Shown one piece after another: positions 29,050 through 64,000 of a stretch of 64,000 nucleotides of DNA (the stretch's first letter is position 1; every line of letters starts with the position of its first letter). The notes beneath the pieces are model-generated. The model was not told the DNA's origin. It was given only the letters and a program-made list of their open reading frames with translations, and did no database searches. The position numbers and the translations under genes were made by a program. The DNA comes from an uncultured Planctomycetales bacterium (GTDB lineage: Bacteria; Omnitrophota; Gorgyraeia; Zapsychrales; JBDRMG01). The stretch lies in contig CAYZIY010000003.1 of NCBI GenBank assembly GCA_964478715.1, positions 6,669-70,668 of the forward strand, read 5' to 3'.

Positions 29050-31101
29050 ATGATGAAAAATTCCAATAATCAGAAACAGAAGTTATCTTTGATTAATTCT
29101 TTCGGTTTTCTTTGCCAGGATCGCATGGTGGTTTTTCTCTCGATTAGTTTTCTCGGGCTTCTTGTTTACTTAAGGAGCTTTTTCGTCGATTTTACTTTTG
29201 ATGATTATGGCGTTATTGTTAATAATCCTTTAATCAAAAATTTTGATTTAGAAATATTTTGGCAACATTATAAAACACGATTCTTAACCAATTTGAGTTT
29301 TGTTCTGAATTATCAAATTCACGGTCTCGATATTTTTGGATGGCATCTTTTGAATCTCATCATTCATATGGGGAATTCCTTTTGGGCCTATCTTTTGACC
29401 AATCAATTGTTAACAGTATCGGGCAAGGGGCAAAAAGGGTGTGATTGCCGGCCAAGCATCATTGCTTTCTTTGTGAGCCTGATTTTTCTACTGCATCCGA
29501 TTCAAACCCAGGCGGTGACCTATATTGTTCAGCGGGCAACACTTTTGGCCACGTTTTTTTATCTCTCAGCTGTTTATTGTTTTGTGCGTTCTTTTACGGA
29601 GAATAAATATTTATATCTTTTTATTGCTCTTTTTTGCGCACTTTTGGGTATGTTCACAAAACCTATTATCATCACACTTCCCGTTATTTTGGTTCTTTTA
29701 ACGTTTCTTTTTCCGAAAATGATCAAAGCACAAATTGCCGGAAAACGAATGATTATTTTAATCGGTTGCTTTCTACCCGTTCTTATCATTCCTCTGGGTC
29801 TTTATGGCCTTGAACGTTTAAGACATGAGATTGCCCAAGGAATGCAGGTGAGCTCTCCTTTAACCTATGCTTTAACGCAGCTTAATGTCTTATTGACTTA
29901 TCTGAGGCTTTTAATATTTCCCGTTGAACAGAATCTCGACTATGACTATCCTTTGGCGCGAAACCTTTTTGAATTTCCAACGCTTATTTCATTTGTGATA
30001 TTTTTGACCATTATTGTTTGCACGCTATTTCTGCTCAAAAGAAAAAAGCTGTTTTCTTTTGGCATTCTATGGTTTTTGATTACATTGGCTCCTCAGTCGA
30101 GTTTTTTTCCCTTAAGGGACGCTATTTTCGAGCATAGATTATACTTAAGCTCTTTTGGATTTGCTCTTTCTGCGGTCTTGATATTATTAAATTTTTTGGG
30201 TTGGAGAAAAATGACAGTTGTTATGATTGCCGTCAGTTGCCTTTTAGCTGTTCTCACTTTTCAGCGCAATGCTGTCTGGAGTGATCCGCTCTTTTTTTTA
30301 AAGGATGTCGTTAGAAAATCACCTCAGAAAGCTCGGCCTCATCATAATTTGGGATTCTTTTACGCCCAGAGAGGCAATCTTCAGGAGGCGCAAAGAGAAT
30401 TTCAAAGAGCTCTTGAGCTTGATCCGGGCAATGTCCGCTTGGCTTATAATCTGGGGATGATTTATCTAAGAGAAAATCAACTAGAAAAAGCAGAAAATTT
30501 ATTTCGCCGTTTGATTCAAGATGTTCCTGAATATCCGGATCCTTATACCGGTTTAGCGCTGACATTGAAAAGACAAGATCAATTAAAAGAAGCCATCAAA
30601 TATTTTCAGGAAGCGATTATGCGTGATCCGTTTCAAACGGCCGCTTTGATGGGTATGGGAAATATTTCTCAAGAGAATCGTGATTTTGAAAAAGCGGAAG
30701 AATATTTTAAAGAAGTTATTCAGCTGAAACCAGAAGACGCCCTGAGTTATTATAATCTGGGGAATCTTTACTATCAGAAAAAGCAGTGGTCTGAAGCCGA
30801 GGAGTTATATCTTCAAGCCCTCAAGCGTGATCCAGGTCTGGCCAGAGCATTGAATAATTTAGGACTCATTTATTTTTCTCAACATAAAAATATTAACAAG
30901 GCTAGCTATTATTTCCGACAGGCTGTCTATGCTAATCCCCTTTTAGCTGATGCTTATTTCAATTTCGCTAATTCATTGTATGCTTTAGGGCGTCCAGAAG
31001 AAGCTCATCGAATGGCCGCAACGGCAGTTAGGCTTTATCGTCAGCAAAACAAAATAAAAAGGGCAGAGACTATTGAGAAAATCTTGTCGCGGGATGGATA
31101 A
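29050..31101 (+). CDS. TMTC-like protein: N-terminal polytopic DUF1736/PMT-like GT-C domain + C-terminal TPR array (candidate polyprenol-P-sugar-dependent protein glycosyltransferase)
   Basis: ~11 TM segments with FTFDDYGVIVNNP near TM1 and LLHPIQTQAVTYIVQRATLLATFFYL. The C-terminal ~270 aa contain at least 7 TPRs (YNLGMIYL, YYNLGNLYYQ, etc.). Same architecture as eukaryotic TMTC1-4. Confidence 0.65.
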   Translation: MMKNSNNQKQKLSLINSFGFLCQDRMVVFLSISFLGLLVYLRSFFVDFTFDDYGVIVNNPLIKNFDLEIFWQHYKTRFLTNLSFVLNYQIHGLDIFGWHLLNLIIHMGNSFWAYLLTNQLLTVSGKGQKGCDCRPSIIAFFVSLIFLLHPIQTQAVTYIVQRATLLATFFYLSAVYCFVRSFTENKYLYLFIALFCALLGMFTKPIIITLPVILVLLTFLFPKMIKAQIAGKRMIILIGCFLPVLIIPLGLYGLERLRHEIAQGMQVSSPLTYALTQLNVLLTYLRLLIFPVEQNLDYDYPLARNLFEFPTLISFVIFLTIIVCTLFLLKRKKLFSFGILWFLITLAPQSSFFPLRDAIFEHRLYLSSFGFALSAVLILLNFLGWRKMTVVMIAVSCLLAVLTFQRNAVWSDPLFFLKDVVRKSPQKARPHHNLGFFYAQRGNLQEAQREFQRALELDPGNVRLAYNLGMIYLRENQLEKAENLFRRLIQDVPEYPDPYTGLALTLKRQDQLKEAIKYFQEAIMRDPFQTAALMGMGNISQENRDFEKAEEYFKEVIQLKPEDALSYYNLGNLYYQKKQWSEAEELYLQALKRDPGLARALNNLGLIYFSQHKNINKASYYFRQAVYANPLLADAYFNFANSLYALGRPEEAHRMAATAVRLYRQQNKIKRAETIEKILSRDG

Positions 31102-31658: not shown

Positions 31659-32993
31659 TTAGATTTTTTTTGCCAAAAAAGAGCTACTTATCCACCAGAG
31701 GACCAAGGGCAGGGCAGCGACCATGATGCGTTTCAGGGATGTTGCAAGCCACCAAAGAATATTCCAATGGGTATTAATAAAGTAAAATAGAAAAATACTC
31801 AATCCATAAAATACAAGAAAACCTGGAATTAAAAGAAGATAGTTTTTCAAGCTTCGCTTTGCGGAGATCAAAAAACCCACCGCGCAAAGAATCCAGATTC
31901 CCATCCAATTGTCATTGGTCAATTCGAAACCCACAAATGACAAAATTACTTTCAGCCGATAGAGACTGATAGGGCGGGTCTCTGAGAGCAGGCCATTTAC
32001 AAACAATTGATCACCGGGGGAATACAATAAATAAAAAATGATTGTCGGTAAGGAAGCTAGTAGAAAAGTTCCTGCAAAAATTAAGATGTTATCTATTCTC
32101 TCTTTGCGCAAGAGTTGGACAGCGAGAAAGGAAACGATAATAAAAGCAGCAATGGTTCCTTCGGATTTTGTAAAACTTAAAAGACCCAAAAAGAAAGAAG
32201 ATAAAATGAGGGATTTTTGTTGTTCGGTCACAAAGAAATGCCGGACGCAAAAGAGACTGGCCAGTAAGAAGTAGGCGATGAGAATATCCGCGTATTGAAT
32301 GGTTGCCCAGGTTAAGAAAACCGGCAGAGTGGCCAGGAAAAGGGCAGGCAAGACACTGATCAAACGCCGGCAGGATCGACGGATGCAAATCCATAAAAGA
32401 GAGCAGGTCAGAAAACTGTAAGCAACGGACGTCCACATCGGGCCGCGGAAAAGCGGTTCTCTTTGGAATATCCACGCCCACACATTTATCAAAGGTAAAA
32501 GAAGCGGATAATGAGGACGGGAATCAAGAAGGTGCGGACCGAACAGGTTGGTCCAGTAAGGGCCGGCGCGCAGGAGAAATCTCGCCTTGAAATTCCAAAC
32601 GACCCACGCATCCCAACCGCCGTAAAGATAAACACGCGCTGAAATATAAATCGGTATAAGACAAACCCCTAGCAAGGATATCGAAATGAGATCATTACGG
32701 GAGATCTGTTTTTCAGTTTTCTCAGTGATGTTTTCTGCTTTTGCCTGAATCCATCTGATGATAGAAAAGGTTATAAGCAAAATTACGTGAAGAGAAACCA
32801 GAGCTACAAAATTTATTTGATTAAAGAAAACCAGGTGAAGAAAATTGAGCCATCCGCTAATGCCAAGCCCTAGACCCATTCCTAAAAAGAGGCGTTCAAG
32901 AAAATCAAAGGGTTGCTCTTTTTCATTCAAGCAGCTGAGTACTAAAAAACCGAGCGCAAAAGAGATCACATAGGGGATTGCCAGCATCATCAT
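31659..32993 (-). CDS. polytopic (~12 TM) membrane protein, possible GT-C-fold glycosyltransferase
   Basis: 444 aa, highly hydrophobic with aromatic-rich loops. No soluble domain. Divergent from the sugar-modification operon. Confidence 0.35.
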   Translation of the reverse strand: MMMLAIPYVISFALGFLVLSCLNEKEQPFDFLERLFLGMGLGLGISGWLNFLHLVFFNQINFVALVSLHVILLITFSIIRWIQAKAENITEKTEKQISRNDLISISLLGVCLIPIYISARVYLYGGWDAWVVWNFKARFLLRAGPYWTNLFGPHLLDSRPHYPLLLPLINVWAWIFQREPLFRGPMWTSVAYSFLTCSLLWICIRRSCRRLISVLPALFLATLPVFLTWATIQYADILIAYFLLASLFCVRHFFVTEQQKSLILSSFFLGLLSFTKSEGTIAAFIIVSFLAVQLLRKERIDNILIFAGTFLLASLPTIIFYLLYSPGDQLFVNGLLSETRPISLYRLKVILSFVGFELTNDNWMGIWILCAVGFLISAKRSLKNYLLLIPGFLVFYGLSIFLFYFINTHWNILWWLATSLKRIMVAALPLVLWWISSSFLAKKI

Positions 32994-33451
32994 TATTTTT
33001 TTGCCAGAATAATTCCAAAGTTATTTATTTTGATGGCCCGAGCGTCGATTTCCTCAAGTTTTTCTTGAGCTTTCTGGTTAGATGAGAAATCCAAAAACAT
33101 ATATTCGTATTCGGTGGCTTCTTTAACCAGAACCGCCGGAGCCAGGGCGAATTGAGCCCGCAGAAAACGCTTCAGATATTTGGGCTTATTTAAATCATAA
33201 TCGGAAAGATATCCTATGTATTGTTGATCTTTGAGCTCTGTATCGAGCCCCGCGAAGCGAAGGCCCGGGAAATAAACCAGGTGCGGTTTATAGAGTTTGT
33301 GCCAGTCATTCTGTATGCGGGAGATAAAGTCAAGGAGATTAAGGAGGATTAAGACAATAAAGAGGGCAGTAAAGATTTTCCTTTGGTTTCCGATTTGTTT
33401 AAGCCAATTTAAAAAGGTGAAGAATTGCGACGTTATCTGCTTTCTGTTCAT
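32993..33451 (-). CDS. hypothetical protein with one TM segment, co-oriented and overlapping (ATGA) with the downstream membrane protein
   Basis: ORF only. Likely start MNRKQITSQFF... (the track extension to 33574 would overlap the divergent gene). Confidence 0.3.
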   Translation of the reverse strand: MNRKQITSQFFTFLNWLKQIGNQRKIFTALFIVLILLNLLDFISRIQNDWHKLYKPHLVYFPGLRFAGLDTELKDQQYIGYLSDYDLNKPKYLKRFLRAQFALAPAVLVKEATEYEYMFLDFSSNQKAQEKLEEIDARAIKINNFGIILAKK

Positions 33452-33563
33452 TCTTATTATTTTAGCACAAAGTGCGCTGAAAATGTAATTGTGAAATATC
33501 TCTTTAAAGCAGAGTCCATCATGGTTATAATACTGCCAGATTAAACAATGAAAAGATCGAAAG

Positions 33564-34586
33564 ATGTGCCACATGATTAAGATAGGAATTATCGGTTGCG
33601 GTTACTGGGGCCCGAATCATGTCCGGATATTCTCGCAACTGACTCAATCTGAAGTTGTTATGTGCGCTGATTCCAGTGTTGAAAGATTACAGTGGCTAAA
33701 AGGGCTCTATTCTCAGGTTCAAACAACGGAATATTATCAGGATATACTCAGCAATCCAGAAATCGAAGCGGTTGTTATCGCCACGCCTACCGAAACCCAT
33801 TATCAGATTTCGAAAGAAGCCCTTGAAGCCAATAAACATGTTCTTTGTGAAAAGCCTTTAAGTCTTCGCAGTCAGGAATGCCTTGATCTCGAGAAACTCG
33901 CCAAAAAAAATGAAAAAATTCTAATGGTCGGGCATATCTTTATTTTTCACCAGGGGATTCTTAAACTGAAGGAATATATCTCCCAAGGGGTGATTGGTCG
34001 CGTTCTTTATGCTCATTCCCAAAGAACCAATCTGGGACCGTTTCGCTACGATGTCAATGCTTTGTGGGATTTAGCCCCTCATGATGTGTCGATCTTCAAT
34101 TATTTGTTGGATGCGGCGCCTGTGCGCGCGTCGGCTTGCGGTCAAGAATATTTAGGCACGTCCCATGAAGATCTGGCTTTTGCCACTTTAGAGTATCCCG
34201 ATAATGTGTTAGTTAATATACACGTGAGCTGGTTGGATCCCCGGAAAGTTAGACGTCTGACTATTGTTGGAGATCAAAAAATGATGACCTGGGATGATCT
34301 TGATAATCTGGGTCCTATTAAGCTTTATGATAAGCATGTGCAGCGCACTAAAACATTTTATCAGACTTACGGAGAATTTCAGCTGCTCTCCAAAGAGGGC
34401 AGTATTACGATCCCTAATGTCAAAAATACCGAACCTTTAAAGACCCAGGCGATTTATTTTCTTGATTGCATTAATAATGGGCGGCAACCGGTACTTACCG
34501 ATGCGCAAAAAGCGCTGAGAGTCGTTAAGGCATTATCTGCCATTCAAAAATCGATACAACAAAAAGGGCAATCTGTAGATGTTTAA
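33564..34586 (+). CDS. Gfo/Idh/MocA-family NAD(P)-dependent sugar oxidoreductase (UDP-sugar dehydrogenase-like)
   Basis: N-terminal Rossmann IGIIGCGYWGPNHVRIF. EKP motif (LCEKPL). GFOR-family C-terminal domain. Confidence 0.8.
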   Translation: MCHMIKIGIIGCGYWGPNHVRIFSQLTQSEVVMCADSSVERLQWLKGLYSQVQTTEYYQDILSNPEIEAVVIATPTETHYQISKEALEANKHVLCEKPLSLRSQECLDLEKLAKKNEKILMVGHIFIFHQGILKLKEYISQGVIGRVLYAHSQRTNLGPFRYDVNALWDLAPHDVSIFNYLLDAAPVRASACGQEYLGTSHEDLAFATLEYPDNVLVNIHVSWLDPRKVRRLTIVGDQKMMTWDDLDNLGPIKLYDKHVQRTKTFYQTYGEFQLLSKEGSITIPNVKNTEPLKTQAIYFLDCINNGRQPVLTDAQKALRVVKALSAIQKSIQQKGQSVDV

Positions 34587-35159
34587 ATGGAGAAATCGAT
34601 GTCTGAGAAAGATTTTTGGCACCCTGTAGCGGTGATCGAACAAAATGCAAAAATCGGTTTCGGAACCAGGATATGGGCTTTTTCCAATATCAAAAGCGGT
34701 GCTTTTATTGGTAGCCATTGCAATATCTGTGATCATTGCTATGTCGAGGGGGGTGCTGTGATCGGTGATCGGGTAACGATCAAAAACGGAGTCAGCGTTT
34801 TTAAAGGCATCACCATAGAAGATGATGTTTTTTGCGGGACAAACGTTGTCTTTATCAACGATCGTAATCCTAGGAGCCGTAAAAAAGACTGGGTGCTGGA
34901 AAAGACAGTGGTGAAGAAGGGTGCCGCTATCGGAAGTAATGCGACGGTCCTTTGCGGTGTTACAATAGGTGAATATGCTCTCATTGGAGCCGGAAGCGTG
35001 GTGACAAGGGATGTCGCGGCGTATTCCGTTGTCGCAGGAAATCCGGCGCGTTTTAAAGGATTTGCCTGTGTCTGCGGTAAAACACTAAATGATACATTGA
35101 TCTGTTCCTGCGGCAGGATCTATAAGAAAAATGGACGAAATCTTACGCTTCAGAAGTAA
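34587..35159 (+). CDS. left-handed beta-helix (hexapeptide-repeat) sugar N/O-acetyltransferase (WbpD/NeuD-like) with a C-terminal Cys-rich tail
   Basis: Repeating [LIV]G..x..x hexapeptides (IGSHCNICDHCYVEGGAVIGDRVTIKNGVSV...). FINDRNPR motif. The tail CVCGKTLNDTLICSCGR is zinc-ribbon-like. Confidence 0.75.
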   Translation: MEKSMSEKDFWHPVAVIEQNAKIGFGTRIWAFSNIKSGAFIGSHCNICDHCYVEGGAVIGDRVTIKNGVSVFKGITIEDDVFCGTNVVFINDRNPRSRKKDWVLEKTVVKKGAAIGSNATVLCGVTIGEYALIGAGSVVTRDVAAYSVVAGNPARFKGFACVCGKTLNDTLICSCGRIYKKNGRNLTLQK

Positions 35160-35886
35160 AATTCTTATCTCACCCGTTGCTTTTAATGAATATATCAAAT
35201 TAAAAAATGTTATTAGCAGATTTTTACAATCTCCTTTTTATGGGCAAGTAGATTATCTGGTCGTCGATGACGGTTCTACAGATGAAACGCCGCAGATGAT
35301 TTGTTCTTTTGCCGATAGAGGCGTCAAGACTTTACGTCACGAAAAGCAGAGGGGCGTGGGAGCGGCCATTCGCAGCGTCATTGATTATGCTCGCGCTCAT
35401 AGTTATGACATTTTGGTAATTATGGCTGGGAATGATAAAGATAATCCCGATGAAATTGGCGATTTGATTGATCCTATCGAACAAGAGGGATTTGATCTGG
35501 TGCAGGGATCACGATATATCAAAGGAAACCGGGGAATCGGTGGTGATATGCCTTTTTATCGCAAGATAGCTACCCGCTTGCATCCGTTATTATTCTCTCT
35601 TTTTGTAGGCAAGAAAGTGACAGATTCGACTAATGGATTTCGGGCCATGCGCTTATCGCTTTTTGATGATGAGAGGATCAATATCAATCAGTCGTGGCTG
35701 GATCATTATGAACTGGAACCTTATATTCTTTTTAAAGCCATTTGTTTGGGATACCGGTATACCGAAGTTCCTGTTACTAAGATTTATCCGCCCAAGAAGC
35801 TCGGCGTGACCAAGATGCGACCGATTACCGGATGGTGGAGTATTCTCAAGCCTATTTTTTATCTGGGATTGGGAATTCGGAAATAA
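35131..35886 (+). CDS. GT2-family polyprenol-phosphate sugar synthase (DPM1/GtrB/ArnC-like)
   Basis: LVVDDGSTDETP (DXD-like). VQGSRYIKGNRGIGGDMPFYRKIATRL is the characteristic GSRY...R..S of Dol-P-Man/Und-P-sugar synthases. Only 251 aa, with no C-terminal TM. Confidence 0.6.
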   Translation: MDEILRFRSKILISPVAFNEYIKLKNVISRFLQSPFYGQVDYLVVDDGSTDETPQMICSFADRGVKTLRHEKQRGVGAAIRSVIDYARAHSYDILVIMAGNDKDNPDEIGDLIDPIEQEGFDLVQGSRYIKGNRGIGGDMPFYRKIATRLHPLLFSLFVGKKVTDSTNGFRAMRLSLFDDERININQSWLDHYELEPYILFKAICLGYRYTEVPVTKIYPPKKLGVTKMRPITGWWSILKPIFYLGLGIRK

Positions 35887-35889
35887 AGT

Positions 35890-36594
35890 ATGAAAAAATG
35901 TGTCCGTTGCCAAATTGATTACGAAGATGACAGCCGTGTTCGTTGCCTGTATTGTGATTCAAAATTGATGGACGGCCGGCTGGATCGGCTCTTTCGCAGT
36001 GCAACTGAAACACAGGTGATCAATAAGCTGATCGCTGAAGATCATAGGATCAATCATGAACGCGTGGAGCATCTGATCGGAAGTTATTTTCGCAGTAAAT
36101 CTTTTTCCTTTCTCTATGCGTTTAATCGTCAACAGTATAAAATGGGGAAGAGATTTAAGCGAATCTTTGTGCAACCATTAGATTTTTCTACAATTATCAG
36201 GCTACCATGGTTTGCCATCAATCTTTTGGATTCGATAGTTCTCCGATTATTTTTCAGAACCTATTGCCCTCAATGTGATTTCAAGTGCAAGAAATTTCTT
36301 GGGCAAACTTTTCACACTAAAGAAGAGTGTTCCTATAATCAGGAATATTCAAGGATACTTAATGAAATTATGACCGGAAGTATTATTCTCAATGAATCCC
36401 GATATAAAAGACAGATGTTCAAAAAATTGCAAGCAGGAGAACGTAGTGCCTATTTCGATCTATGTTCGAAAAAGAGGGATTTTGAAATCTTTATCGATAT
36501 GGTCGTGATTTTGATTTCTATCGCACTTATTATCTATGTGTTTATTCAGTTGATCATGCCGACGCTGGCTGTCGCTTTTGATTTTTATTGGTAA
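35890..36594 (+). CDS. hypothetical zinc-ribbon protein with a C-terminal TM anchor
   Basis: N-terminal CVRCQ...CLYCDS. Second Cys cluster CPQCDFKCKKF. C-terminal hydrophobic helix VVILISIALIIYVFIQLIM. Confidence 0.35.
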   Translation: MKKCVRCQIDYEDDSRVRCLYCDSKLMDGRLDRLFRSATETQVINKLIAEDHRINHERVEHLIGSYFRSKSFSFLYAFNRQQYKMGKRFKRIFVQPLDFSTIIRLPWFAINLLDSIVLRLFFRTYCPQCDFKCKKFLGQTFHTKEECSYNQEYSRILNEIMTGSIILNESRYKRQMFKKLQAGERSAYFDLCSKKRDFEIFIDMVVILISIALIIYVFIQLIMPTLAVAFDFYW

Positions 36595-52483: not shown

Positions 52484-52510
52484 CGTTTTCGCAAAAACGG
52501 CATTTTCTTT
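52484..52510 (+). terminator. weak rho-independent terminator downstream of hflX
   Basis: CGTTTT-CGCA-AAAACG hairpin followed by GCATTTTCTTT. Confidence 0.45.
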
Positions 52511-52538
52511 AGTTATTCCTGCGGAAGGACAATATATA

Positions 52539-52567
52539 TTGCATACTTTAATTAGAAGACAATTATA
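52539..52567 (+). promoter_or_regulatory. putative promoter driving the riboswitch leader and giant-adhesin operon
   Basis: TTGCAT (52539-44), a 17-nt spacer, then ATTATA/TTATAG (52562-68). Confidence 0.35.
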
Positions 52568-52619
52568 GCGTTTTGCCGATAAACCCGTAAAGTCGGGCCC
52601 GGCGGAGCCAAAGACGAAA

Positions 52620-52770: not shown

Positions 52771-52789
52771 AATACCCAACGGAGACAAA

Positions 52790-52987
52790 ATGGATAGTTT
52801 TGTTATGACTGAAGAACAAATTCATGAATGGGTTAATCGGATGCAAATAAATAAAAGAAAGCCTTTTCTTCATGATAAGGATTTTCAAATAAAAGCTTGG
52901 CAGATTCATCAAAATTATTGCATGTTTGAAAGGAAGGCAGGGGTTTTGAAAATAACCCCTGTTTTTTTATGTGGGAGGCAAACATGA
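52790..52987 (+). CDS. small ORF (65 aa) translationally coupled (ATGA) to the giant adhesin gene
   Basis: GGAGA ribosome-binding site 5 nt upstream. Stop TGA 52985-87 overlaps ATG 52984 of the giant ORF. No recognisable motif. Confidence 0.3.
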   Translation: MDSFVMTEEQIHEWVNRMQINKRKPFLHDKDFQIKAWQIHQNYCMFERKAGVLKITPVFLCGRQT

Positions 52988-55900: not shown

Positions 55901-58900
55901 GCATTGGCTATGATTTTGATGGAATGTTTGTGGATAATACAAATACTTATGCTTTTATGTGGGACAGTGTTCCAGACAATGAAGTTTTAGAATATCCGGA
56001 TGATCCTCAAAGAGAAGAAGATTGGCATGAGGATATGGTTGAAACTTTTGCTGCCGTCAAGGCCCAATTAGCTGATAAAAAACTCTATATTAATACGATA
56101 TATTTTCATCTTCCACAATACTTCCCAGTCACCGACGGTGATTTTAAGGAATATGTTATTCACGGCCGTTCTAGTATGGGAGGCGGCGAACCTTATTATA
56201 TGCATTTGGCAAGATTGGCAACAGAAGCAGAGCAATATTCTGTGTTAACAGTAGCTAATTATACTGATGAAAGCGGAAATCCGTTATATACGTTTTCAGA
56301 AGATAGGTATAAAATTTTCACCTTAGCCCAATATTATTTATTGCATAGTCCTTATACGTACTTTAACTATCAGGTAGGAAATACCTCATGGAATCATGAC
56401 TTACATGCGCAGTGGTTTGAGGCGATGGGATACAATATTGGAATTCCTATTGGTGATGAGTATATTTATGCCACAGATAATCAACCTAATGGGCAGGCCG
56501 CTGTCTATGCGCGGGAATTCACCAATGGGCTTGTTTTGGCAAAATTCAAACCGAATTGGGTGAATGACTTTGATCAACCATCGACGCATGATTTAGGCGG
56601 AAGCTATAAGCTTTTGGGTGTCGATGGATCTCTGGGGCCGGTGATCAATCAAATCACTTTGCGCAATTCACAAGCTGCTATTCTGATTCCTGCGAGCAGT
56701 GGCGGTGAAAATTACCCACCAGTTCTACAGCCAATCGGAAACAGAGAAGTGCTGGAAGGAGCCACACTTAACTTTAGTGTCTCGGCGAGTGATCCCAATG
56801 GAGATGTTCTTACCTATACAGCCGAAAATATTCCCGCGGGTTCAAATTTCTCGAATCAAACATTTACCTGGACACCGGGCTATGATCAAGCCGGAACTTA
56901 CTCTGTGAATTTTATTGTCAGTGACGGGGAATTAAGCGACAGTGAACAGATCCAAATCGCCGTTGTCGATAATGATCCTGATACCCAAGCGCCGTCAATT
57001 CCTCAGAATTTTACTGCCCAGGCTTTGTCAGGTGTCCAAGTGCAGCTAACTTGGGAGGTGTCAACAGATAATGTAGGCGTTACAGGCTATCATATTTACC
57101 GCGATGGAGCTGAAGTAGCAACTACGACAACAACGTCTTACCTTGATTCAAGCCTGGAGCAGTTAACGAGATATTCATACGAAATCTCTGCTTATGACGC
57201 AAGCGGAAATGAATCTGCGCTCTCAGATGCAGTCGATGTCACAACGCCTGGAACAACGACCGTCGAAGTGATCGGTTTAGTTCGAGAAGATTGCAGTGGA
57301 TATTCCAATTGCTATTCATCATTGACTCAGTGGGAGTCCAGCTATGGCGGCGTAGATTTTGGATCTTGCCCCCACGGTGATCTAGTCTGCGCTGATGCGG
57401 TGGCCATAGCGCAGATAGACGGCATTTGGAATAGTCCCGAAACCGGCCGAGTTGTGATCGACGGATGGACAACAGACGAGGATCATTATATCAAGATTTT
57501 TACTGCCCCTGAAGCCAGACATGACGGCAAATGGAACGAATCAAAATATCGCCTGGAAGGCTCTCATCTGTGGACACCCATTCTTCAAGTCAGTGAAGAT
57601 TATGTGGTTATCGATGGCCTGCAAATATTCAATAGCGCTACTCAAAATCAACCGGTGGGTGTTGTGATTGATAACCGTTCTACATTAGGAGGGGATGTTC
57701 GTATTAAAAATAATATTATACGATTTCCCAAAGAGGTTTTGCCGTATCAGGCTGGCATTACGCTAAGGATTGATCCTCAGACAACGGTAAAAGTTCTAAA
57801 CAATATCATTATCAATCCCTACGATGGTATTTCGGCCGCTCCCTGGAGCGGAGATAAAGGAACGTATGTGATTTATAATAATACTCTTGTCGACCCCAAG
57901 CGGTATGGGATTCAGTGCGCCTTTGAAGGCAGCGGTCAGGGCGCCCTTTTACTTAAGAACAATCTCGTTCAGGGTATCAATACTAATTATGATATTTATG
58001 GATCCTCAAATCTTAATCTCTTTGAGCACGCGGCTAATATTTCGGAAGATGCCTCATCGCCTGACGATGCGCTCAGAAACAAACAGGCTCTGTTCGTTGA
58101 GGAAGCTCTCGATGATTTTCATCTTTCCGAAAGCGATATCACAGCTAAGGACATGGGTGTGGATTTAAGCAATAATAGTTACGCTCCCTTTGACAATGAT
58201 ATTGACGGTGAAAATCGAGCATCACTTTGGGATATCGGCGCGGATGAGTATGTTTCTTCTGCTGTCAATCATCCGCCGGTTCTAGAAACGATCGATCCCC
58301 AGGAAGGCTTTATCGGTGATCCGATTATTTTTGAGGCGACAGCGACAGATCCCGATGGGGATGTCTTGAACTATTCGGCGACCGGACTTCCAGCTGGAGC
58401 GATTTTTGAGAATCAGGTTTTCAGCTGGACTCCTGACGAGACCCAAGAGGGTCAACATCAAATAACTGTTACGGTTGACGATGGAGATCTTGATGATTCT
58501 CAAGTGGTTTCTATTACCGTTGTTGGGATTAATGATCCTCCGATTCTTGAGCCAATCGGCAACAAAATTGTGAACGAAGGCGAGGAATTAAGTTTTACCA
58601 TCAATGCTATGGATCCGGATGAAGACGGTATTCTTTTGACTATCTCGACCGAGATCCCGGATGTTGTTCTTACAGATAATGGAAACGGCACAGCTGATTT
58701 CAGCTGGATACCTGGCTATGATCAAGCCGGCAGTTATCAAGCGACCTTTAACGCTCAGGATGAAGGCGGCTTAACAGATCAAGAGACAATCACCATTGAA
58801 GTCTATGGAACAAACCGGCCGCCTGAAATTGATCAGATCTCGGATCAAACAATTAATGAGGGAGAGGAGCTTATTTTTGATGTAATGGCTATAGATCCTG

Positions 58901-61900
58901 ATGATGACGGAATTCTTCTTAGCATGAGCGGCTTGGACGATGCTTCCTTTGTTGATTACGGCGATGGCTCAGGAACCTTTAGCTGGAGTCCAGATTTTAC
59001 TCAATCAGGTAATTATCAGGCGGTCTTTACAGCCCAGGACGATGGGGGTTTGAGTGATCAGGTTCAGGTTAGCATTCAGGTTGTTAATGTCAACCAGCCC
59101 CCAATCCTTGATCCTGTTGGCGATCAATCCGTGAATGAAGGCCAATTTCTCGACATCACTCTCAGCGCTATTGATCCTGACGGAGAAACACTGATTTACT
59201 CGGCTGCTGATCTTCCGCAAGGCGCCGCACTAATCGAGAATCAATTAACCTGGACGCCTACGTATGATCAATCCGGTTCTTATCCGGTCACCTTAAGAGT
59301 TGAAGACTTAGGGGGTCTGATTGATTCTGAGACAATAACGATTACCGTTGATCACATCAACAGAGCTCCTATTCTTGATCCCATCGGTAACCATCAGGTG
59401 GCTGAAGGCAATACAATATCGATTACGTTGAGTGCTTTTGATCCAGATGGAGATCTTTTAAACTATCATGTACGCAATGAGCCTCAAGGGGCAAGTCTGA
59501 TAGGTCACGTCTTTAGCTGGACGCCTGGTTACTCAGATGCCGGAAATTATGAAGTGACTTTTAGTGTAGATGATGGACAGCTGAATGATATTGAGGAAAT
59601 TATTATTAGCGTTGGAAATATAAATCGGCCTCCGGAATTTGATATCATCAGCCCTCAGGTCGTGGATGAAAATCAGATCTTGTTGTTCATGCTGAGCGCT
59701 TCAGATCCCGATGGCGACAATTTGATTTACAATTCCATCGGCTTACCGATAGGTTCTTCTTTTGATTCAGCAACCAAAGAATTTACATGGACGCCCGATT
59801 ATGATCAGGCAGGTACTCATGTTGCAGAATTCAGTGTGACCGATGGAGATCTTAGCGATACTCTCACCGTCGAGATTGCTGTAATGGATGTCAACAGGAC
59901 ACCAACCCTCGAACCTTTGCAGGCAGAATATAGCGTTAATGAAAACGAAGTCTTCATCATTTCCTTGGATGCCTCTGATCCTGATCAGGATGCTTTAAGC
60001 TTGACCATGCAGCCGGCTTTAGAGGGCGCTAGAATTGATAATCAAATACTAAGTTGGCTGCCGAGCTTTGAGCAAGCCGGCGTTTATGAAGTGACCTTTA
60101 CGGTGAGTGATGGAGATCTTTCTGACCAGCAAACGACAACGCTCATTGTTAACAATATCAACCGGGCTCCGGTCTTTGAACCCATCGGTAACCAGGAAGT
60201 TGAGGAAGGAGAGAGCCTTTCCATAATTCTCAACGCTTCTGACCCCGATGGAGACGATTTGACATTTACTTCATCTGATTTACCGGACGGTTCTTCGATT
60301 GGCGGAGAAAACGGAAATATCTTTCTCTGGTCTCCCACGCATACCCAGTCAGGAGTTTATGAGGTGACCATAACGGTTACCGATTCACAACTCACTGGTT
60401 CACAGATGAGTGAGATAACTGTTGTAAATATCAATCGGGCACCTGTTCTTGATCCTATCGAAAATCAATCGATTCAGGAAGGGGAAACGCTGGAAATCCA
60501 GCTTTCAGGAACGGATCCCGACGGAGATGCACTGACATACTCAGCTTCCAATCTTCCCGAAGGCGCTAATTTCTCAAGCGCAAGCGGACTTTTTCAATGG
60601 ACACCAACATTTGATCAAAACGGAACTTACATACTTATTTTTGTTGTCAGTGATGGTGAATTAACTGATTCTCAAGAGGCAACGTTGACAGTGATTAATA
60701 ATAACCGGATACCTTCTTTAGATCCTATCGGGCCCAAAGAAGTCCATGAAAACTCAAATCTCACCTTTCAGATCAATGGATCAGATCCTGATGGGGATAG
60801 CTTGCAGTTTACAGCCAAGCAACTTCCTGAAGGAGCGAACTTCACAAATCAGATATTCAGCTGGACTCCAAATTATGATCAGGAAGGGGAATACTTTGTC
60901 ACCTTTACAGTAGATGATGGACAGCTCTCTGATTCTGAAGAAATCTTTATCACTGTCTATGGATCCAACAGAGCTCCTGTCTTGGATCCAATTGGAGATA
61001 GAACGGTTGACGAGGGAGATCTTTTAACTTTTACAGTCACAGCCACTGATCCTGACGGTCATCCTTTAACGTACTCAGCTTCTAATCTTCCAGAAGGCGC
61101 TACCTTTGCAAATCAAGCTTTCAGCTGGACTCCTGACTTTGGTCAATCTGGAAGTTATGAGGTCACTTTCACCGTGATGGATACTAGTGAGCTTCTCATT
61201 CTGGATGATTCAGAGACAATCACGATTACAGTCAATGATGTGAATCGGGCACCTGTGCTGGATCCCATAGGAAATCAATCGATTCAGGAAGGGGAAACGC
61301 TGGAAATCCAGCTTTCGGGAACGGATCCCGACGGAGATGTATTGACATACTCGGCTTTAGGTCTTCCTGAAGGCGCTGACTTCTTTGAAGACTTAGGGCT
61401 GTTTACTTGGACACCAACCTTCGGAGAGCAAGGAATCTACACTTTATCTTTTATTCTCAGCGACGGTTCTTTGACTGACGAAGAGTCTATTTCTATTTCT
61501 GTTGGCAATGTGAATCAACCACCTGTTTTAGACCCTATTGATGATCAGGCAGTTTTAGAGGGAGAACAGATCAGCATCCAGCTTGCCGCCAGCGATCCGG
61601 ATGGACAGACATTAATCTATTTCGCAGAAAATCTTCCTCAGGGAGCTGATCTTTTATCGGAGAATGGTTTGTTTGAATGGATTCCCGGATTTGATCAGTC
61701 GGGTGAGTATATTGTTACCTTGGGCGTGACAGACGGAGTATTAGAAGATACACAGGATGTCATTTTGACGATCACCAATGTCAATCGCGCGCCTCAAATC
61801 AGCCCTGTTGAACAACAGGAAGTTCATGAGAATCAAAATCTAAGCTTCTCTATTACTGCGGATGATCCCGACGGGGATATCATAACCTATTCGGCTCAGG

Positions 61901-64000
61901 GATTACCCAGCGGAGCTCAGTTTACGGATCAAACTTTCAATTGGACCCCTGATTATGAGCAGAAAGGAACCTATCAGGTAGGTTTTACGGCCAGTGATGG
62001 TGAGCTGTCAGGTTCAATGACCGTTACGATAATTGTCTATGGAACCAATCGGCCGCCGGTTTTAAGTCCGATCCACGATCAAATCATTGAGGAGGCCGAT
62101 TTATTATCCTTCGATGTTATAGGCAGTGATCCCGATGGAAATTCTCTTAGTTACAGAGCTTCGGGTTTGCCTCAAGGGGCCATCTTTGAAAACCAGGTCT
62201 TCAGCTGGATTCCGACATATGATCAAGCTGGAAGCTATGAGGTTACCTTTACGGTTATGGATACCAGTGAATTAATGGTTCTGGAAGACAGCGAGACGAT
62301 CACTATCACCGTTGTCAATGTCAATCGAGCACCGGTTTTGGAGTCAATCCCTAATCAGGAAATAGAAGAAGGGCAGCAGCTTACTTTTAGTATCGCGGCC
62401 ACAGATCCTGATGATGATTCCTTAACATTCACTGCTGGAGATTTACCGCAGGGTGCTCAGTTTGAAAATCAAATCTTCAGTTGGATTCCCGCAAATGAGC
62501 AAGTCGGAGTCCATGAGGTTACTTTTAATGTCAGCGATGGAGCATTGTCTGATTCCCAAACAATTTCGATTGTCGTTACAGAAATTGTCATACCACCGGA
62601 AAATCATCCGCCGGTTCTTGATCCTATCGGGAATAAGGAGATGGACGAAGGCCAGCAATTGAGTTTTGTTGTCACCGCTTCTGATCCTGATGGAGATCAG
62701 CTGATGATTTCTGCTTCTCATATTCCCTTCGGCGCACAATTTAACGAACAATCCGGTCTATTTGAATGGACACCCTCTTATGAGCAGGCCGGAGAATATC
62801 AAATAACTTTTATAGTATCGGACGGTCAGTTGCGCGATTCAGAAGCCATCACAATTAATGTAAGAGACGTGAATCTTGCACCGATTTTGGAACCCATTGG
62901 TGACAAAAGAGTTGAAATCAGAACAGAACTCAGCTTTCAAGTAATGGGTTTAGATCCAGACAATGATTCGCTATCCTATTCTGTCAATGGTTTGCCGCAG
63001 GGAGCCAAATTCAAAAATCAATTATTCCGCTGGAAACCATCCAAAGAACAGGTAGGCCAGTATCAACTGGAATTCTTTGTCAGCGATGGCCAGTTGCGGG
63101 ACAGCGAGATGATTCAAATTAATGTGTATGAAACCAATACTGATCCTAGCGAAAATCAGCCGCCTATTTTAGATGCCATTGGCAATAAAACTGTCGCGGC
63201 CGAAGATTTGCTCAGGTTTCGTATTAAATCGATAGATCCCGACGGAGATCTCTTGATTCTGGTCGTTCGCGATTTGCCTGCTGGTGCGTCAATGGATGAT
63301 GATCTCTTTCAATGGAGACCCACAGACGATCAAGTCGGACAATATTTCGTCACATTTATTGTCACCGAAGGGGTTTATGACGAATCGGGGGTGCTGATTG
63401 CCGCTGATGGTGCTTATAGTGATCAGGAGACTGTTAAGATCAAGGTCTTTAAAGGGGAGCAACCGCAGCCGCGTTCAACGGAGAACGAAACACAGATACT
63501 GGAAGGTGAATCAGGCCAGGATTCGGCAAATGGGACGGATGGTGATGATCTGTCTCAAACGTCATCCTATTATGGGGGTTTAGCGTATATAGTTTCCGAT
63601 GACAATGAAAAACAAGAGATGACCCTCCAGCAATCAGACAAAACAGCAAAGGGAAATTCTGCAAAAAGCAAAACTAGAAAGAATAACAGAGCGCCTGTCA
63701 TTTTGACCAATGATCAAACAGAACTGGAAGAGGGAACACAAGCAGTCATTCAGGTTTTTGCCAGCGATCCTGACCAGGATTCTTTGGTTCTTTCAACAGA
63801 AGAACTGCCCTTGGGAGCCGTATTTGTGGATCGGGGCGATGGCATCGGAGAGATTGTTTGGAATCCTTATGATGATCAGGTGGGTGAGCATACAATCAAT
63901 GTGATTGTGACAGACGGCCAGGTTCAGGACACAAAAAGCATCAATTTTATGATCAATAAGGCCAGTGATGCCCCAGATGAAGGGAATTTGCCTGAGGAAT
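52984..64000 (+). CDS. giant secreted multi-domain surface protein (adhesin-like), 5' portion of >3,670 codons: signal peptide, beta-helix, CarboxypepD_reg-like, cadherin-like repeats, unknown ~470-aa domain, FN3, second beta-helix, >=21 further cadherin-like (He_PIG/dystroglycan-type) repeats. The 3' end is outside the window.
   Basis: Frame 1 is open from ATG 52984 (GGGAGG ribosome-binding site 8 nt upstream) to the window end. I translated line-by-line and found no stops. Signal peptide MKKTFPYLLAFLMALWSPAKG. Repeats of the form N[RQ][AP]P.[LI][DE]PIGN..V.EGE.L.F...A.DPDGD.L.Y.A..LP.GA.F....F.WTP...Q.G.Y.V.F.V.DG.L.D. FN3 consensus ...GYHIYRDGAEVATTTTTSY...YSYEISAYDASGNES. Absent from the supplied ORF track because no stop codon occurs in the window. 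Confidence 0.85.
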   Translation, partial: MKKTFPYLLAFLMALWSPAKGFSLEITHVSGCAEVDTDYQCVEIASCQDLTQSNTYYLLADDIVTGGTCFTNHVSNIHLDLNSYTVSYAQTEPGHAFYEQWSNRDNVTIENGFMIGGYQNNSHALYWVTDGSDNLVIRNLSLSVAGVETSGIKIGTGNNLEIHHVNIEMDSDKADPCSHYGEPIAGISLAHRGGDIDIHHNFVTGTGMTGIVTSSCGTYTEPLEIHNNYISTWSPVRDGYAIGISGTNNSCSDGTLIYDNTINQQNGRGIIVDGWTGNESYGPGNIEMYGNHITVKEGWDCEYDRPGTAAGIRLRFGAHDVYAHDNEIYGLAGTGVAVGSEPGKDGATAIGIYSGSSLPYGLNNRFENNYVEVSTNDARYPAIGLYVAGGDQNTSAAFSQFLNNTIVSNNKPIRIGYSDGGGSQADFDSNTIVRGDNPLDFHTYTVGYWIFGAHHIDFLDSIVEGGASAQDIVFDSACEGSCANYENITLSWTLNLQVENSGANRIEGASVQITDSDNQIVAQGQTDAQGLFSQTLVEKSFEGILQPDEFIHTPHEIQIEKAGYQTYSDSLVMDSTKTVIVNLQEGSSNQAPILEPLTEWSVFTGESIEILVSAIDPDNDPIELSASTLPSGAQFLDYANGTGIFSWIPSVDGLYSISFTASDGYLSDIETLQIAVLAGAPEGNQAPVLSEISDQTGYPFELLTFEVTATDSDDDLLTYWAENLPNGADFMDQTFIWFPDDTQLGTHTITFFVSDGEYTDSQDVTVTIQDSAGCVYPQTYPHPDGSCRVLPHINVAGVSYSNPDTDQEYDWRVEHYDLLLFTFGSYVLDEFIGVKERSPGLVSLRYDNMHSHIMYHDRKMNALDDWIENHPEYGVFEDYFLHYKYDCIQAGIERKGWNPDEDLNVNHIRDGYEANPQTDPIDPNRSADFKHESRIMTRYNRTDRVFANVGHAGYQAFNAQFSYDEVHTADVPSIGYDFDGMFVDNTNTYAFMWDSVPDNEVLEYPDDPQREEDWHEDMVETFAAVKAQLADKKLYINTIYFHLPQYFPVTDGDFKEYVIHGRSSMGGGEPYYMHLARLATEAEQYSVLTVANYTDESGNPLYTFSEDRYKIFTLAQYYLLHSPYTYFNYQVGNTSWNHDLHAQWFEAMGYNIGIPIGDEYIYATDNQPNGQAAVYAREFTNGLVLAKFKPNWVNDFDQPSTHDLGGSYKLLGVDGSLGPVINQITLRNSQAAILIPASSGGENYPPVLQPIGNREVLEGATLNFSVSASDPNGDVLTYTAENIPAGSNFSNQTFTWTPGYDQAGTYSVNFIVSDGELSDSEQIQIAVVDNDPDTQAPSIPQNFTAQALSGVQVQLTWEVSTDNVGVTGYHIYRDGAEVATTTTTSYLDSSLEQLTRYSYEISAYDASGNESALSDAVDVTTPGTTTVEVIGLVREDCSGYSNCYSSLTQWESSYGGVDFGSCPHGDLVCADAVAIAQIDGIWNSPETGRVVIDGWTTDEDHYIKIFTAPEARHDGKWNESKYRLEGSHLWTPILQVSEDYVVIDGLQIFNSATQNQPVGVVIDNRSTLGGDVRIKNNIIRFPKEVLPYQAGITLRIDPQTTVKVLNNIIINPYDGISAAPWSGDKGTYVIYNNTLVDPKRYGIQCAFEGSGQGALLLKNNLVQGINTNYDIYGSSNLNLFEHAANISEDASSPDDALRNKQALFVEEALDDFHLSESDITAKDMGVDLSNNSYAPFDNDIDGENRASLWDIGADEYVSSAVNHPPVLETIDPQEGFIGDPIIFEATATDPDGDVLNYSATGLPAGAIFENQVFSWTPDETQEGQHQITVTVDDGDLDDSQVVSITVVGINDPPILEPIGNKIVNEGEELSFTINAMDPDEDGILLTISTEIPDVVLTDNGNGTADFSWIPGYDQAGSYQATFNAQDEGGLTDQETITIEVYGTNRPPEIDQISDQTINEGEELIFDVMAIDPDDDGILLSMSGLDDASFVDYGDGSGTFSWSPDFTQSGNYQAVFTAQDDGGLSDQVQVSIQVVNVNQPPILDPVGDQSVNEGQFLDITLSAIDPDGETLIYSAADLPQGAALIENQLTWTPTYDQSGSYPVTLRVEDLGGLIDSETITITVDHINRAPILDPIGNHQVAEGNTISITLSAFDPDGDLLNYHVRNEPQGASLIGHVFSWTPGYSDAGNYEVTFSVDDGQLNDIEEIIISVGNINRPPEFDIISPQVVDENQILLFMLSASDPDGDNLIYNSIGLPIGSSFDSATKEFTWTPDYDQAGTHVAEFSVTDGDLSDTLTVEIAVMDVNRTPTLEPLQAEYSVNENEVFIISLDASDPDQDALSLTMQPALEGARIDNQILSWLPSFEQAGVYEVTFTVSDGDLSDQQTTTLIVNNINRAPVFEPIGNQEVEEGESLSIILNASDPDGDDLTFTSSDLPDGSSIGGENGNIFLWSPTHTQSGVYEVTITVTDSQLTGSQMSEITVVNINRAPVLDPIENQSIQEGETLEIQLSGTDPDGDALTYSASNLPEGANFSSASGLFQWTPTFDQNGTYILIFVVSDGELTDSQEATLTVINNNRIPSLDPIGPKEVHENSNLTFQINGSDPDGDSLQFTAKQLPEGANFTNQIFSWTPNYDQEGEYFVTFTVDDGQLSDSEEIFITVYGSNRAPVLDPIGDRTVDEGDLLTFTVTATDPDGHPLTYSASNLPEGATFANQAFSWTPDFGQSGSYEVTFTVMDTSELLILDDSETITITVNDVNRAPVLDPIGNQSIQEGETLEIQLSGTDPDGDVLTYSALGLPEGADFFEDLGLFTWTPTFGEQGIYTLSFILSDGSLTDEESISISVGNVNQPPVLDPIDDQAVLEGEQISIQLAASDPDGQTLIYFAENLPQGADLLSENGLFEWIPGFDQSGEYIVTLGVTDGVLEDTQDVILTITNVNRAPQISPVEQQEVHENQNLSFSITADDPDGDIITYSAQGLPSGAQFTDQTFNWTPDYEQKGTYQVGFTASDGELSGSMTVTIIVYGTNRPPVLSPIHDQIIEEADLLSFDVIGSDPDGNSLSYRASGLPQGAIFENQVFSWIPTYDQAGSYEVTFTVMDTSELMVLEDSETITITVVNVNRAPVLESIPNQEIEEGQQLTFSIAATDPDDDSLTFTAGDLPQGAQFENQIFSWIPANEQVGVHEVTFNVSDGALSDSQTISIVVTEIVIPPENHPPVLDPIGNKEMDEGQQLSFVVTASDPDGDQLMISASHIPFGAQFNEQSGLFEWTPSYEQAGEYQITFIVSDGQLRDSEAITINVRDVNLAPILEPIGDKRVEIRTELSFQVMGLDPDNDSLSYSVNGLPQGAKFKNQLFRWKPSKEQVGQYQLEFFVSDGQLRDSEMIQINVYETNTDPSENQPPILDAIGNKTVAAEDLLRFRIKSIDPDGDLLILVVRDLPAGASMDDDLFQWRPTDDQVGQYFVTFIVTEGVYDESGVLIAADGAYSDQETVKIKVFKGEQPQPRSTENETQILEGESGQDSANGTDGDDLSQTSSYYGGLAYIVSDDNEKQEMTLQQSDKTAKGNSAKSKTRKNNRAPVILTNDQTELEEGTQAVIQVFASDPDQDSLVLSTEELPLGAVFVDRGDGIGEIVWNPYDDQVGEHTINVIVTDGQVQDTKSINFMINKASDAPDEGNLPEE
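58264..63426 (+). repeat. tandem array of ~270-282-nt coding repeats (about 19 consecutive cadherin-like domain units), then a low-complexity linker and a further unit from 63694
   Basis: Unit boundaries (NRAPVLDPIGN-type) at ~58264, 58540, 58812, 59092, 59365, 59626, 59893, 60166, 60436, 60706, 60973, 61246, 61513, 61783, 62053, 62323, 62611, 62878 and 63160. Units 60436-60700 and 61246-61510 share ~90-nt near-identical DNA. Confidence 0.8.

Follow-up and report, generated by a model that had tools for sequence, protein, structure and literature searches.

Two TMTC-family proteins, a polyprenyl-phosphate sugar synthase and a separate giant He_PIG-repeat protein in an Omnitrophota genome

The 64,000-nt stretch of DNA analysed here (the window) comes from an Omnitrophota genome; the best matches of its HflX (59–68 % identity) and of its tetratricopeptide repeat (TPR) proteins (41–47 %) are both in Candidatus Omnitrophota metagenome-assembled genomes (MAGs). 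It encodes two proteins that resemble the animal TMTC O-mannosyltransferases, a family 2 glycosyltransferase (GT2) and the 5′ part of a giant secreted repeat protein. An earlier note on this DNA had joined the three into one system, in which the TMTC-like proteins glycosylate cadherin-like repeats of the giant protein. Nearly all genes of the region are on the + strand. The TMTC-like proteins and their motifs are located as follows.

29050-31101, + strand: TMTC-like glycosyltransferase 1, 683 aa; GT-C membrane domain aa 1-420 (nt 29050-30309), TPR array aa ~421-680
29191-29229, + strand: catalytic DD motif FTFDDYGVIVNNP, aa 48-60 of TMTC-like 1, predicted first periplasmic loop
29494-29535, + strand: HPIQTQAVTYIVQR of TMTC-like 1, counterpart of the TMTC motif HP(I/V)HTEAV..VGR
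30127-30153, + strand: FEHRLYLSS of TMTC-like 1, counterpart of the TMTC motif 'AERVLY.PS', predicted lipid-phosphate binder
42014-44023, + strand: TMTC-like glycosyltransferase 2, 669 aa; N-terminal domain nt 42014-43273, DD motif nt 42104-42142

Sequence, fold, motifs and architecture all assign both proteins to the TMTC family. The two are paralogous to each other (30 % identity, E 3e-93), each with a polytopic N-terminal domain (N-domain) and a C-terminal TPR array at aa ~420-660 that is matched by TPR_1 and TPR_2 at E 1e-38 to 1e-41; a third copy was not found within the window. A profile of the bacterial N-domain was compared with the N-domains of human and Drosophila TMTC1-4 (n=8), taken from the supplementary alignment of PMC7801869. 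All eight were matched at 113–149 bits (E 1e-30 to 1e-41 with the database size set nominally at 1e6 sequences), and essentially end to end, with profile positions 15–398 against TMTC residues ~5–430. The same profile scored 5.5 bits on ArnT and no higher than 5.8 bits on 208 shuffled or reversed TMTCs, and did not match Pmt1. Single-sequence phmmer searches of a window protein against a TMTC reached E values as low as 5.5e-15. In the reverse direction, a profile of the eight animal TMTCs, run on all open reading frames (ORFs) of the window, recovered only the two TMTC-like ORFs at 71 bits each (71.6 bits over aa 12-396 of TMTC-like 2), with no match to the PMT_2-type GT-C protein at 31659-32993. 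Together with the motifs, these reciprocal profile matches place the homology within the TMTC lineage, beyond the shared GT-C fold. The two paralogous proteins of TMTC architecture proposed in the earlier note are therefore borne out by direct comparison with animal TMTCs, by motifs and by TPR arrays.

Judged by comparing sequences, this homology is robust, though invisible to Pfam. The N-domains (first 420 residues) of both proteins are without matches in Pfam, NCBIfam and PDB sequences; the expectation that they would score as DUF1736 or PMT_2 failed for each, and only the TPR part scored. Six TPR-less homologues likewise gave only marginal GT-C_AftD and PMT_2 matches. Taken alone, such nulls would have led to a wrong rejection of TMTC identity, and direct comparison with the animal proteins was therefore needed. 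The bacterial N-domain is detected by no Pfam or NCBIfam model, although the family exceeds 65,000 representative clusters at E≤1e-10; database names for its members are mostly just 'tetratricopeptide repeat protein'. An AlphaFold2 model built with 66 homologues is confident (pLDDT 91.1, pTM 0.91). All of its significant Foldseek matches are GT-C enzymes (STT3, PglB, ArnT, DPY19, Emb and Pmt4), in agreement with the PMT-like fold that had been suggested.

The window proteins keep the motifs assigned to catalysis and ligand binding in animal TMTCs, for which a role of 'AERVLY' and its Arg is also described (PMC7801869). Of these assignments, the DD after the first transmembrane helix (TM1), a basic residue before R(P/F)L..SF, HP..T(E/Q).V...V.R and the loop-3 Lys are kept, and the Arg of 'AERVLY' is retained in the window proteins as 'FEHRLY'. 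D51/D52 of TMTC-like 1 are nearly invariant in the 66 homologues, invariant in an eight-member N-domain set and aligned with the invariant DD of animal TMTC1-4; the counterpart in TMTC-like 2 is FQYDDYKMLVNNP (aa 31-43, aspartates D34/D35). H149, P150, V156 and R162 of TMTC-like 1 are invariant in the same 66 homologues, and HP..T..V...V.R is invariant across the window proteins and the TMTCs. In FEHRLYLSS, which aligns with the AERVLY of TMTCs, E361, H362 and Y365 are invariant among the homologues and R363 nearly so.

The animal TMTC1-4 (CAZy GT105) are endoplasmic reticulum O-mannosyltransferases for cadherins and protocadherins, with 11 helices (PMC7801869). Shared with them are the N-terminal GT-C domain, aligned end to end, the C-terminal TPR array and the motifs FxxDD..N, R(P/F)L..(S/T)F, H..N...H, F..HP..T(E/Q).V...V.R, the loop-3 Lys, P....L..D(W/Y), P.S and E(R/H).LY..S.G. 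However, the window proteins have D-Y-D in loop 4 where TMTCs have D-W, and the DUF1736 model does not match them. The bacterial family, in contrast to the animal one, occurs in multi-copy tandem sets with some members TPR-less, and the neighbouring 'cadherin-like' units of the window are of He_PIG type rather than extracellular cadherin (EC) domains. Since the proteins are bacterial, the donor must be a bacterial polyprenyl-phosphate sugar.

The family is very large, with 92,648 representative clusters at E≤1e-3, 65,853 at E≤1e-10 and 16,039 at E≤1e-30, and many members are without TPRs. At least 586 relatives were found, and 79 loci from GTDB species representatives, with 10-kb flanks (1.24 Mb, 4041 ORFs), served as the comparison set; individual loci are given below by L numbers. 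These 79 loci carry 119 TMTC-like copies, up to 8 per 20-kb locus. Tandem arrays of TMTC-like paralogues occur in Omnitrophota MAGs (8 copies in L045, 6 consecutive copies in L058:3932-15288 and 5 copies in L021); L021 and L045 adjoin each other on a single contig, with 13 copies together. PMC7801869 briefly mentions prokaryotic homologues of the TMTCs, and the JGI annotation labels some bacterial members 'protein O-mannosyl-transferase'. With these two and the precedent of TfpW (below), describing the window proteins as an 'undescribed prokaryotic counterpart' overstates their novelty, as they extend an already known family. No functional study of a bacterial TMTC-like member was found in the literature.

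The GT2 and the genes around it lie between the two TMTC-like genes.

31659-32993, - strand: PMT_2-like GT-C, 444 aa, divergent from the GT2 operon (PMT_2 E 2.8e-7, 31.3 bits against a cut-off of 26.1)
32993-33574, - strand: small single-pass membrane protein, 193 aa, one hydrophobic segment, co-oriented with the PMT_2-like GT-C
33564-34586, + strand: Gfo/Idh/MocA oxidoreductase, nearest to UDP-GlcNAc 3-dehydrogenase (176.5 bits against an equivalog cut-off of 450)
34587-35159, + strand: hexapeptide-repeat sugar N-acetyltransferase, NeuD/PglB/VioB-like (96 bits against a cut-off of 160.8); missing in L002
35131-35886, + strand: GT2 polyprenyl-phosphate sugar synthase of dolichol-phosphate mannose synthase (DPMS)/ArnC/PpgS type, 251 aa (Glycos_transf_2 E 7e-18)
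35890-36594, + strand: conserved 234-aa protein, last gene of the GT2 operon, Cys-rich N-terminus (CxxC...CxxC) and C-terminal membrane anchor

The four + strand genes (oxidoreductase, acetyltransferase, GT2 and 234-aa protein) form a tight operon at 33564-36594. The GT2 is soluble, with no membrane segment, and carries its DxD motif within 'VVDDGSTDE'. Its nearest solved structures are the Pyrococcus furiosus dolichol-phosphate (Dol-P) mannose synthase (PDB 5mlz, E 2e-12) and then ArnC, so that the DPM1/GtrB-like synthase of the earlier note, with sugar-modifying enzymes and a further GT-C beside it, held up. The best NCBIfam models are Dol-P-hexose transferase, PpgS and AglJ; the sugar cannot be named because every match falls far under its equivalog cut-off (top 61.6 bits against 375). 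Neither the 234-aa protein nor the protein at 32993-33574 has a Pfam or NCBIfam match. The latter is kept in the syntenic loci, and the former directly follows the GT2 in the window, L001, L002, L082 and L083 (five Omnitrophota loci). In the same four comparison loci the whole block is kept, from TMTC-like gene through GreA, GT-C (-), small protein (-), Gfo/Idh/MocA, the acetyltransferase where present, GT2 and 234-aa protein to SpoU and HD, with the PMT_2-like GT-C in its position and two TMTC-like genes in tandem. This Omnitrophota synteny of GT2 and TMTC-like genes is weak evidence alone, since the housekeeping flanks are equally conserved.

Other phyla offer firmer evidence. A DPMS/PpgS/AglJ-like GT2 lies no more than 1 kb from a TMTC-like gene in 11 of the 79 loci, spanning Nitrospirota, Bacteroidales, Thermodesulfovibrionales and Omnitrophota and often including a DUF2304 gene. 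Operons of GT2, small ORF and TMTC-like gene are found in Nitrospirota (L007:2514-4878, L019:8765-11119 and L047:8750-11104); the TMTC-like ORFs there are ~410–435 aa long, and the TPR array is therefore apparently missing. In Bacteroidales (L014:4857-8079) the order is TMTC-like gene, GT2 and DUF2304, the last being the small membrane protein of that operon. We take operons of GT2, small membrane protein or DUF2304, and TMTC-like GT-C to resemble mycobacterial PpgS/Rv3632/Rv3779. Unsupervised clustering of the neighbours in the 79 loci put GT2 first among the recurrent families (19 and 9 loci), followed by DUF2304 (median distance 56 bp), radical-SAM/B12 enzymes, Wzt ABC ATPases, response regulators, methyltransferases and NDP-sugar epimerases; none of the recurrent families is a candidate substrate protein. 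The recurrent genetic partner of TMTC-like genes is thus a lipid-phosphate-sugar synthase, often with DUF2304, and a polyprenyl-phosphate-sugar synthase is a plausible donor supplier for the TMTC-like enzymes.

The giant gene and the signals before it are the last features of the window.

52732-52761, + strand: terminator-like hairpin, 12-bp stem and T-run, between hflX and the giant gene
52926-52953: promoter-like site after the hairpin, from a consensus scan
52984-64000, + strand: giant secreted protein with signal peptide, 5′ part only, >3672 aa, frame open to the window end

Iterative self-search of the giant protein gave 23 copies of a single ~88-aa unit, with the consensus NRAPVLDPIGNQEVEEGEELSFQVSASDPDGDSLTYSASELPEGASFEDQLFSWTPSYDQAGEYEVTFTVSDGELSDSETITITV; 19 of these are in tandem (aa 1762-3488, nt 58267-63447). 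The Pfam labels He_PIG (659 bits), Big_9 (608 bits), Cadherin_4/5 and PKD_4 all fall on this same unit, Cadherin_4/5 ('bacterial cadherin-like') being weaker. Classical Cadherin (PF00028), whose EC units are ~110 aa, is not among the matches at E≤0.01, and 'cadherin-like' is therefore only loosely apt. Thus the giant secreted protein with signal peptide and tandem repeats was correctly seen in the earlier note, whereas its count of at least 24 cadherin-like domains gives way to 23 units of He_PIG type. The N-terminal ~1240 residues (nt 52984-56700) have a weak GHL15 match (aa 977-1182, nt 55912-56529) and partial homologues among stand-alone proteins of 730–920 aa, one with a dockerin; in the giant protein the repeat stalk may be joined to a head that is enzymatic or binds glycans. 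No orthologue was found in a protein search, a metagenome scan with the N-terminal region gave no match, and no TMTC-like gene lies in the neighbourhoods of the partial relatives. The giant protein shows no enrichment of the Bacteroidetes O-glycosylation sequon D(S/T)(A/I/L/V/M/T) (13 sites against 19.3±3.9 expected), and only one column of the unit alignment is at least 70 % Ser/Thr.

The remaining genes between these features are mostly housekeeping genes.

Between the 29050-31101 gene and the minus-strand PMT_2-type GT-C: GreA
Between 36594 and 42014, in this order: SpoU methylase, HD hydrolase, M48 peptidase, hybrid histidine kinase, Hpt
Between 44023 and a 617-bp gap (52368-52983): AsmA-like, DUF1318, coiled-coil, aminotransferase, tadA-like deaminase, Cys/Met PLP enzyme, TPR/SPOR protein, miaA, hflX

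The TMTC-like genes, the GT2 and the giant gene are in separate transcription units amid housekeeping genes, and the unity that the earlier note saw in the three parts is not borne out. The start of the giant gene is 9 kb from the end of the nearer TMTC-like gene and 22 kb from that of the farther one. At least eight unrelated genes (the AsmA-like, DUF1318, aminotransferase, tadA-like, Cys/Met PLP, SPOR, miaA and hflX genes) intervene after TMTC-like 2, and the 617-bp gap separates hflX from the giant gene. Within the window, the enzyme genes do not adjoin the adhesin gene and are not co-transcribed with it; the hairpin and promoter calls come from a consensus scan only, with total counts not above those of shuffled sequence.

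Comparison with relatives gives no clear link either. A hidden Markov model of the He_PIG unit matched in 0/79 loci (forward test), and phmmer with the whole giant protein gave zero matches in the same set; the large neighbours of TMTC-like genes there are RCC1/BACON, DUF11, SBBP/HYR or kinase proteins. In the reverse test, TMTC-like genes were found in 2/80 metagenomic loci carrying closely related units (826 kb, 40/80 loci at least 10 kb long; a 6-unit alignment was the query, an 18-unit alignment being too divergent). This frequency is indistinguishable from the high TMTC-like base rate in these taxa and, with no taxon-matched base rate, cannot be called enrichment. Because the family is enormous and occurs in arrays, proximity to any gene is cheap.

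Three further loci show what follows hflX in related genomes. L086 (HflX 67 % identical) keeps the order histidine kinase, Hpt, TMTC-like gene and, later, miaA and hflX, and then has S8 and C25 peptidases (11246-19182) and no He_PIG protein. In L087 (HflX 62 %) hflX is followed by an unrelated 1511-aa protein and a 336-aa protein with two He_PIG units (11237-16982), and in L088 (HflX 59 %, same genome as L082) by a different 2148-aa GH20b/He_PIG protein with ~four units (11252-18049). In each Omnitrophota genome compared, the slot 3′ of miaA-hflX thus has its own large secreted protein, often He_PIG-bearing, and it resembles a variable surface-protein locus embedded in conserved synteny. This pattern is compatible with a substrate relationship but is no evidence for one. 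The co-occurrence of TMTC-like and He_PIG genes that the earlier note looked to gave no clear signal in these sets, and its assignment of the giant protein as a dedicated substrate is not supported.

Several known systems offer points of comparison. The pilin O-arabinofuranosyltransferase TfpW of Pseudomonas aeruginosa is an inner-membrane GT-C of ~650 aa with 11 predicted helices; its N-terminus is cytoplasmic, and the loop that bears its DDx motif and its C-terminal TPR domain are both periplasmic (bioRxiv 10.1101/2020.04.19.049825). It shares with the window proteins, as compared by description only, a bacterial GT-C plus TPR architecture; however, tfpW is directly 3′ of its substrate gene pilA, whereas the window enzymes are without an adjacent substrate gene. 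The TfpW donor is a polyprenyl-phosphate monosaccharide. The PMT/POMT enzymes (GT39; fungal and actinobacterial) differ in that Pmt1 is not matched by the bacterial profile and the N-domains have no PMT or PMT_2 Pfam match, and in that the window proteins have a TPR array where PMTs have a MIR domain. ArnC/ArnT, GtrA/B/C and PpgS-Rv3632-Rv3779 share the logic that a cytoplasmic GT2 makes a polyprenyl-phosphate sugar which a GT-C transfers outside the cytoplasm. Likewise, the window GT2 pairs with the divergent PMT_2-type GT-C, and GT2-DUF2304-TMTC-like operons occur elsewhere. The known acceptors of these modules are, however, lipid A, O-antigen or arabinogalactan, and the window shows neither GtrA nor DUF2304. 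The animal O-mannosyltransferase TMEM260, which acts on the Ig-like IPT domains, has a GT-C and a partial TPR region and is credited with 'Distant homologs in bacteria' (PMC10214176). By that description it too resembles the window proteins in having a GT-C and a TPR region, but TMTC is the nearer family, since the window proteins match TMTCs strongly.

Taken together, these data probably reflect periplasmic glycosylation from a lipid-linked monosaccharide by two bacterial TMTC-family enzymes, with the He_PIG giant as a separate unit that has no dedicated system. The DPMS/ArnC-like GT2 (35131-35886) would charge undecaprenyl phosphate with a monosaccharide at the cytoplasmic face, possibly after modification of the sugar by the adjacent oxidoreductase and acetyltransferase, and the lipid-linked sugar would then flip to the periplasmic face. 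There the GT-C domains would pass the sugar to an acceptor held by the TPR domain, using the loop-1 DD, the HP..T(E/Q).V..R loop and the conserved Lys, with E-H-R-LY as putative phosphate binder. The TPR array and the catalytic loops would both lie on the non-cytoplasmic side, as suggested by the gap-free alignment with the TMTC topology (PMC7801869) and the basic N-terminus; homology with the 11-helix animal TMTCs would likewise make the TPR array periplasmic. TMTC1-4, PMTs and TfpW suggest by analogy that the acceptor would most likely be Ser/Thr in proteins that are secreted or periplasmic, and the adjacent PMT_2-type GT-C may also draw on a donor of this kind. Proximity of the giant gene would reflect conserved Omnitrophota gene order and high TMTC-like copy number.

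Several observations speak against parts of this account. DUF1736 (PF08409), which covers the TM7-TM8 loop and is the hallmark of animal TMTCs, is unmatched at E≤1 in both N-domains and in the six TPR-less homologues, although the equivalent loop of the window proteins still aligns and retains P....L..D(W/Y). A flippase candidate (GtrA or DUF2304) was not seen in the window cluster, and the GT2 at 35131-35886 may serve the PMT_2-type GT-C alone. The sugar, the acceptor class and the transferase activity of the bacterial members are all things we infer. As to the separateness of the giant protein, the 10-kb flanks of the forward test would miss the 9–22 kb spacing of the window, and a He_PIG protein is located 3′ of hflX in three of four Omnitrophota genomes (the window, L087 and L088) with a TMTC-like gene ~10 kb upstream, both genes being inside a fully syntenic housekeeping block. 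Additionally, in L110 (metagenome contig, 44 % GC; 3562-10831 and 12426-19588) a TMTC-like gene, a PMT_2 GT-C, a second TMTC-like gene and a He_PIG protein follow each other on one strand. The last, a secreted protein of 581 aa in which two He_PIG units are accompanied by a Pro/Thr/Ser-rich linker, starts 121 bp after the second TMTC-like gene, with a DPMS-like GT2 and a third TMTC-like gene within 10 kb. L110 is a far tighter candidate enzyme-substrate cluster than the window, as a single case.

It is very unlikely that the TMTC-like enzymes, fed by the GT2, are dedicated O-glycosyltransferases of the giant adhesin repeats, with TPRs that recognise folded repeats as animal TMTCs do EC domains. 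In its favour, the homology of the enzymes to TMTCs is genuine, the window, L087 and L088 share a syntenic block bordered by a TMTC-like gene and a He_PIG protein, L110 groups TMTC-like genes, PMT_2 GT-C, DPMS-like GT2 and a two-unit He_PIG/linker protein within 10 kb, and in L145 a He_PIG/Cadherin protein is two genes from a TMTC-like gene. Against this, the genes of the window are neither adjacent nor co-transcribed, the forward and reverse counts are nil and within the high base rate, respectively, L086 keeps the TMTC-like gene without He_PIG after hflX, and the recurrent neighbours are glycan-synthesis genes with no protein substrate. The units are moreover not classical cadherin and have a single column of at least 70 % Ser/Thr, and many family members are TPR-less. 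A wider version, in which TMTC-like GT-C/TPR enzymes of Omnitrophota and some other bacteria O-glycosylate He_PIG/Ig-like repeats or Pro/Thr/Ser-rich linkers from an undecaprenyl-phosphate monosaccharide, the giant adhesin included, is improbable as well. If true, the animal TMTC-cadherin pathway would descend from bacterial decoration of surface-repeat proteins, and L110, with three TMTC-like genes, PMT_2 GT-C, DPMS-like GT2 and He_PIG/linker protein within 20 kb, would be its compact form. The TMTC-cadherin triad is an attractive idea that is not supported by the data here.

A glycan acceptor is a serious rival because of the glycan-synthesis neighbours, and may be held as a doubtful but real alternative. 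In the manner of ArnT, GtrC or mycobacterial Rv3779, the TMTC-like proteins would modify a periplasmic non-protein acceptor, be it lipopolysaccharide (LPS)/O-antigen, lipid A, an exopolysaccharide or some other glycan of the envelope, and their TPR domain would serve as a scaffold that connects to machinery for export or assembly. Neighbours such as DPMS/PpgS-like GT2, DUF2304, Wzt-type ABC ATPase, NDP-sugar epimerase/dehydratase, methyltransferases and further GT2s are consistent with this, as are the TPR-less members and the sugar-nucleotide-modifying enzymes of the window cluster, which are typical of LPS pathways. The trio of GT2, DUF2304 and GT-C presumably mirrors PpgS/Rv3632/Rv3779, which decorates arabinogalactan. 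However, the sequence is far nearer to protein-modifying TMTCs than to ArnT (149 against 5.5 bits), TPR arrays on glycosyltransferases (TMTC, TMEM260, OGT, TfpW) usually bind protein substrates, and many paralogues with divergent TPRs fit many protein clients. The TMTC-specific homology, the PMT-like fold and the TfpW precedent favour a protein acceptor, within periplasmic glycosylation from a lipid-linked monosaccharide. The window itself gives no substrate and does not establish protein O-glycosylation.

Two other gene groups of the window are worth recording. Right after TMTC-like 2 (44028-45704) an AsmA-like membrane-anchored 338-aa protein, a 247-bp gap and a DUF1318 protein follow; the pair is missing from the syntenic L086 and resembles the Escherichia coli ydbH-ynbE-ydbL order. 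The 338-aa gene was considered as an enzyme partner and rejected, being AsmA-like, followed by DUF1318 and part of this ydbH-ynbE-ydbL-like order. At 1063-13113 is a phosphate/polyphosphate cluster of Ppx/GppA, polyphosphate kinase 1, a CHAD protein, a metallophosphoesterase, a Na/Pi cotransporter-PhoU fusion and a PhoB-like regulator.

For experiment, L110, the Nitrospirota operons of GT2, small ORF and TMTC-like gene, and the cultured Geomonas paludis (L048) are better suited than the window. Should the bacterial TMTC homologues prove to be protein O-glycosyltransferases, they would make up one of the largest groups of periplasmic protein-modifying enzymes that are still uncharacterised, their sequence clusters numbering in the tens of thousands, and would point towards a bacterial origin of the animal pathway of cadherin mannosylation.

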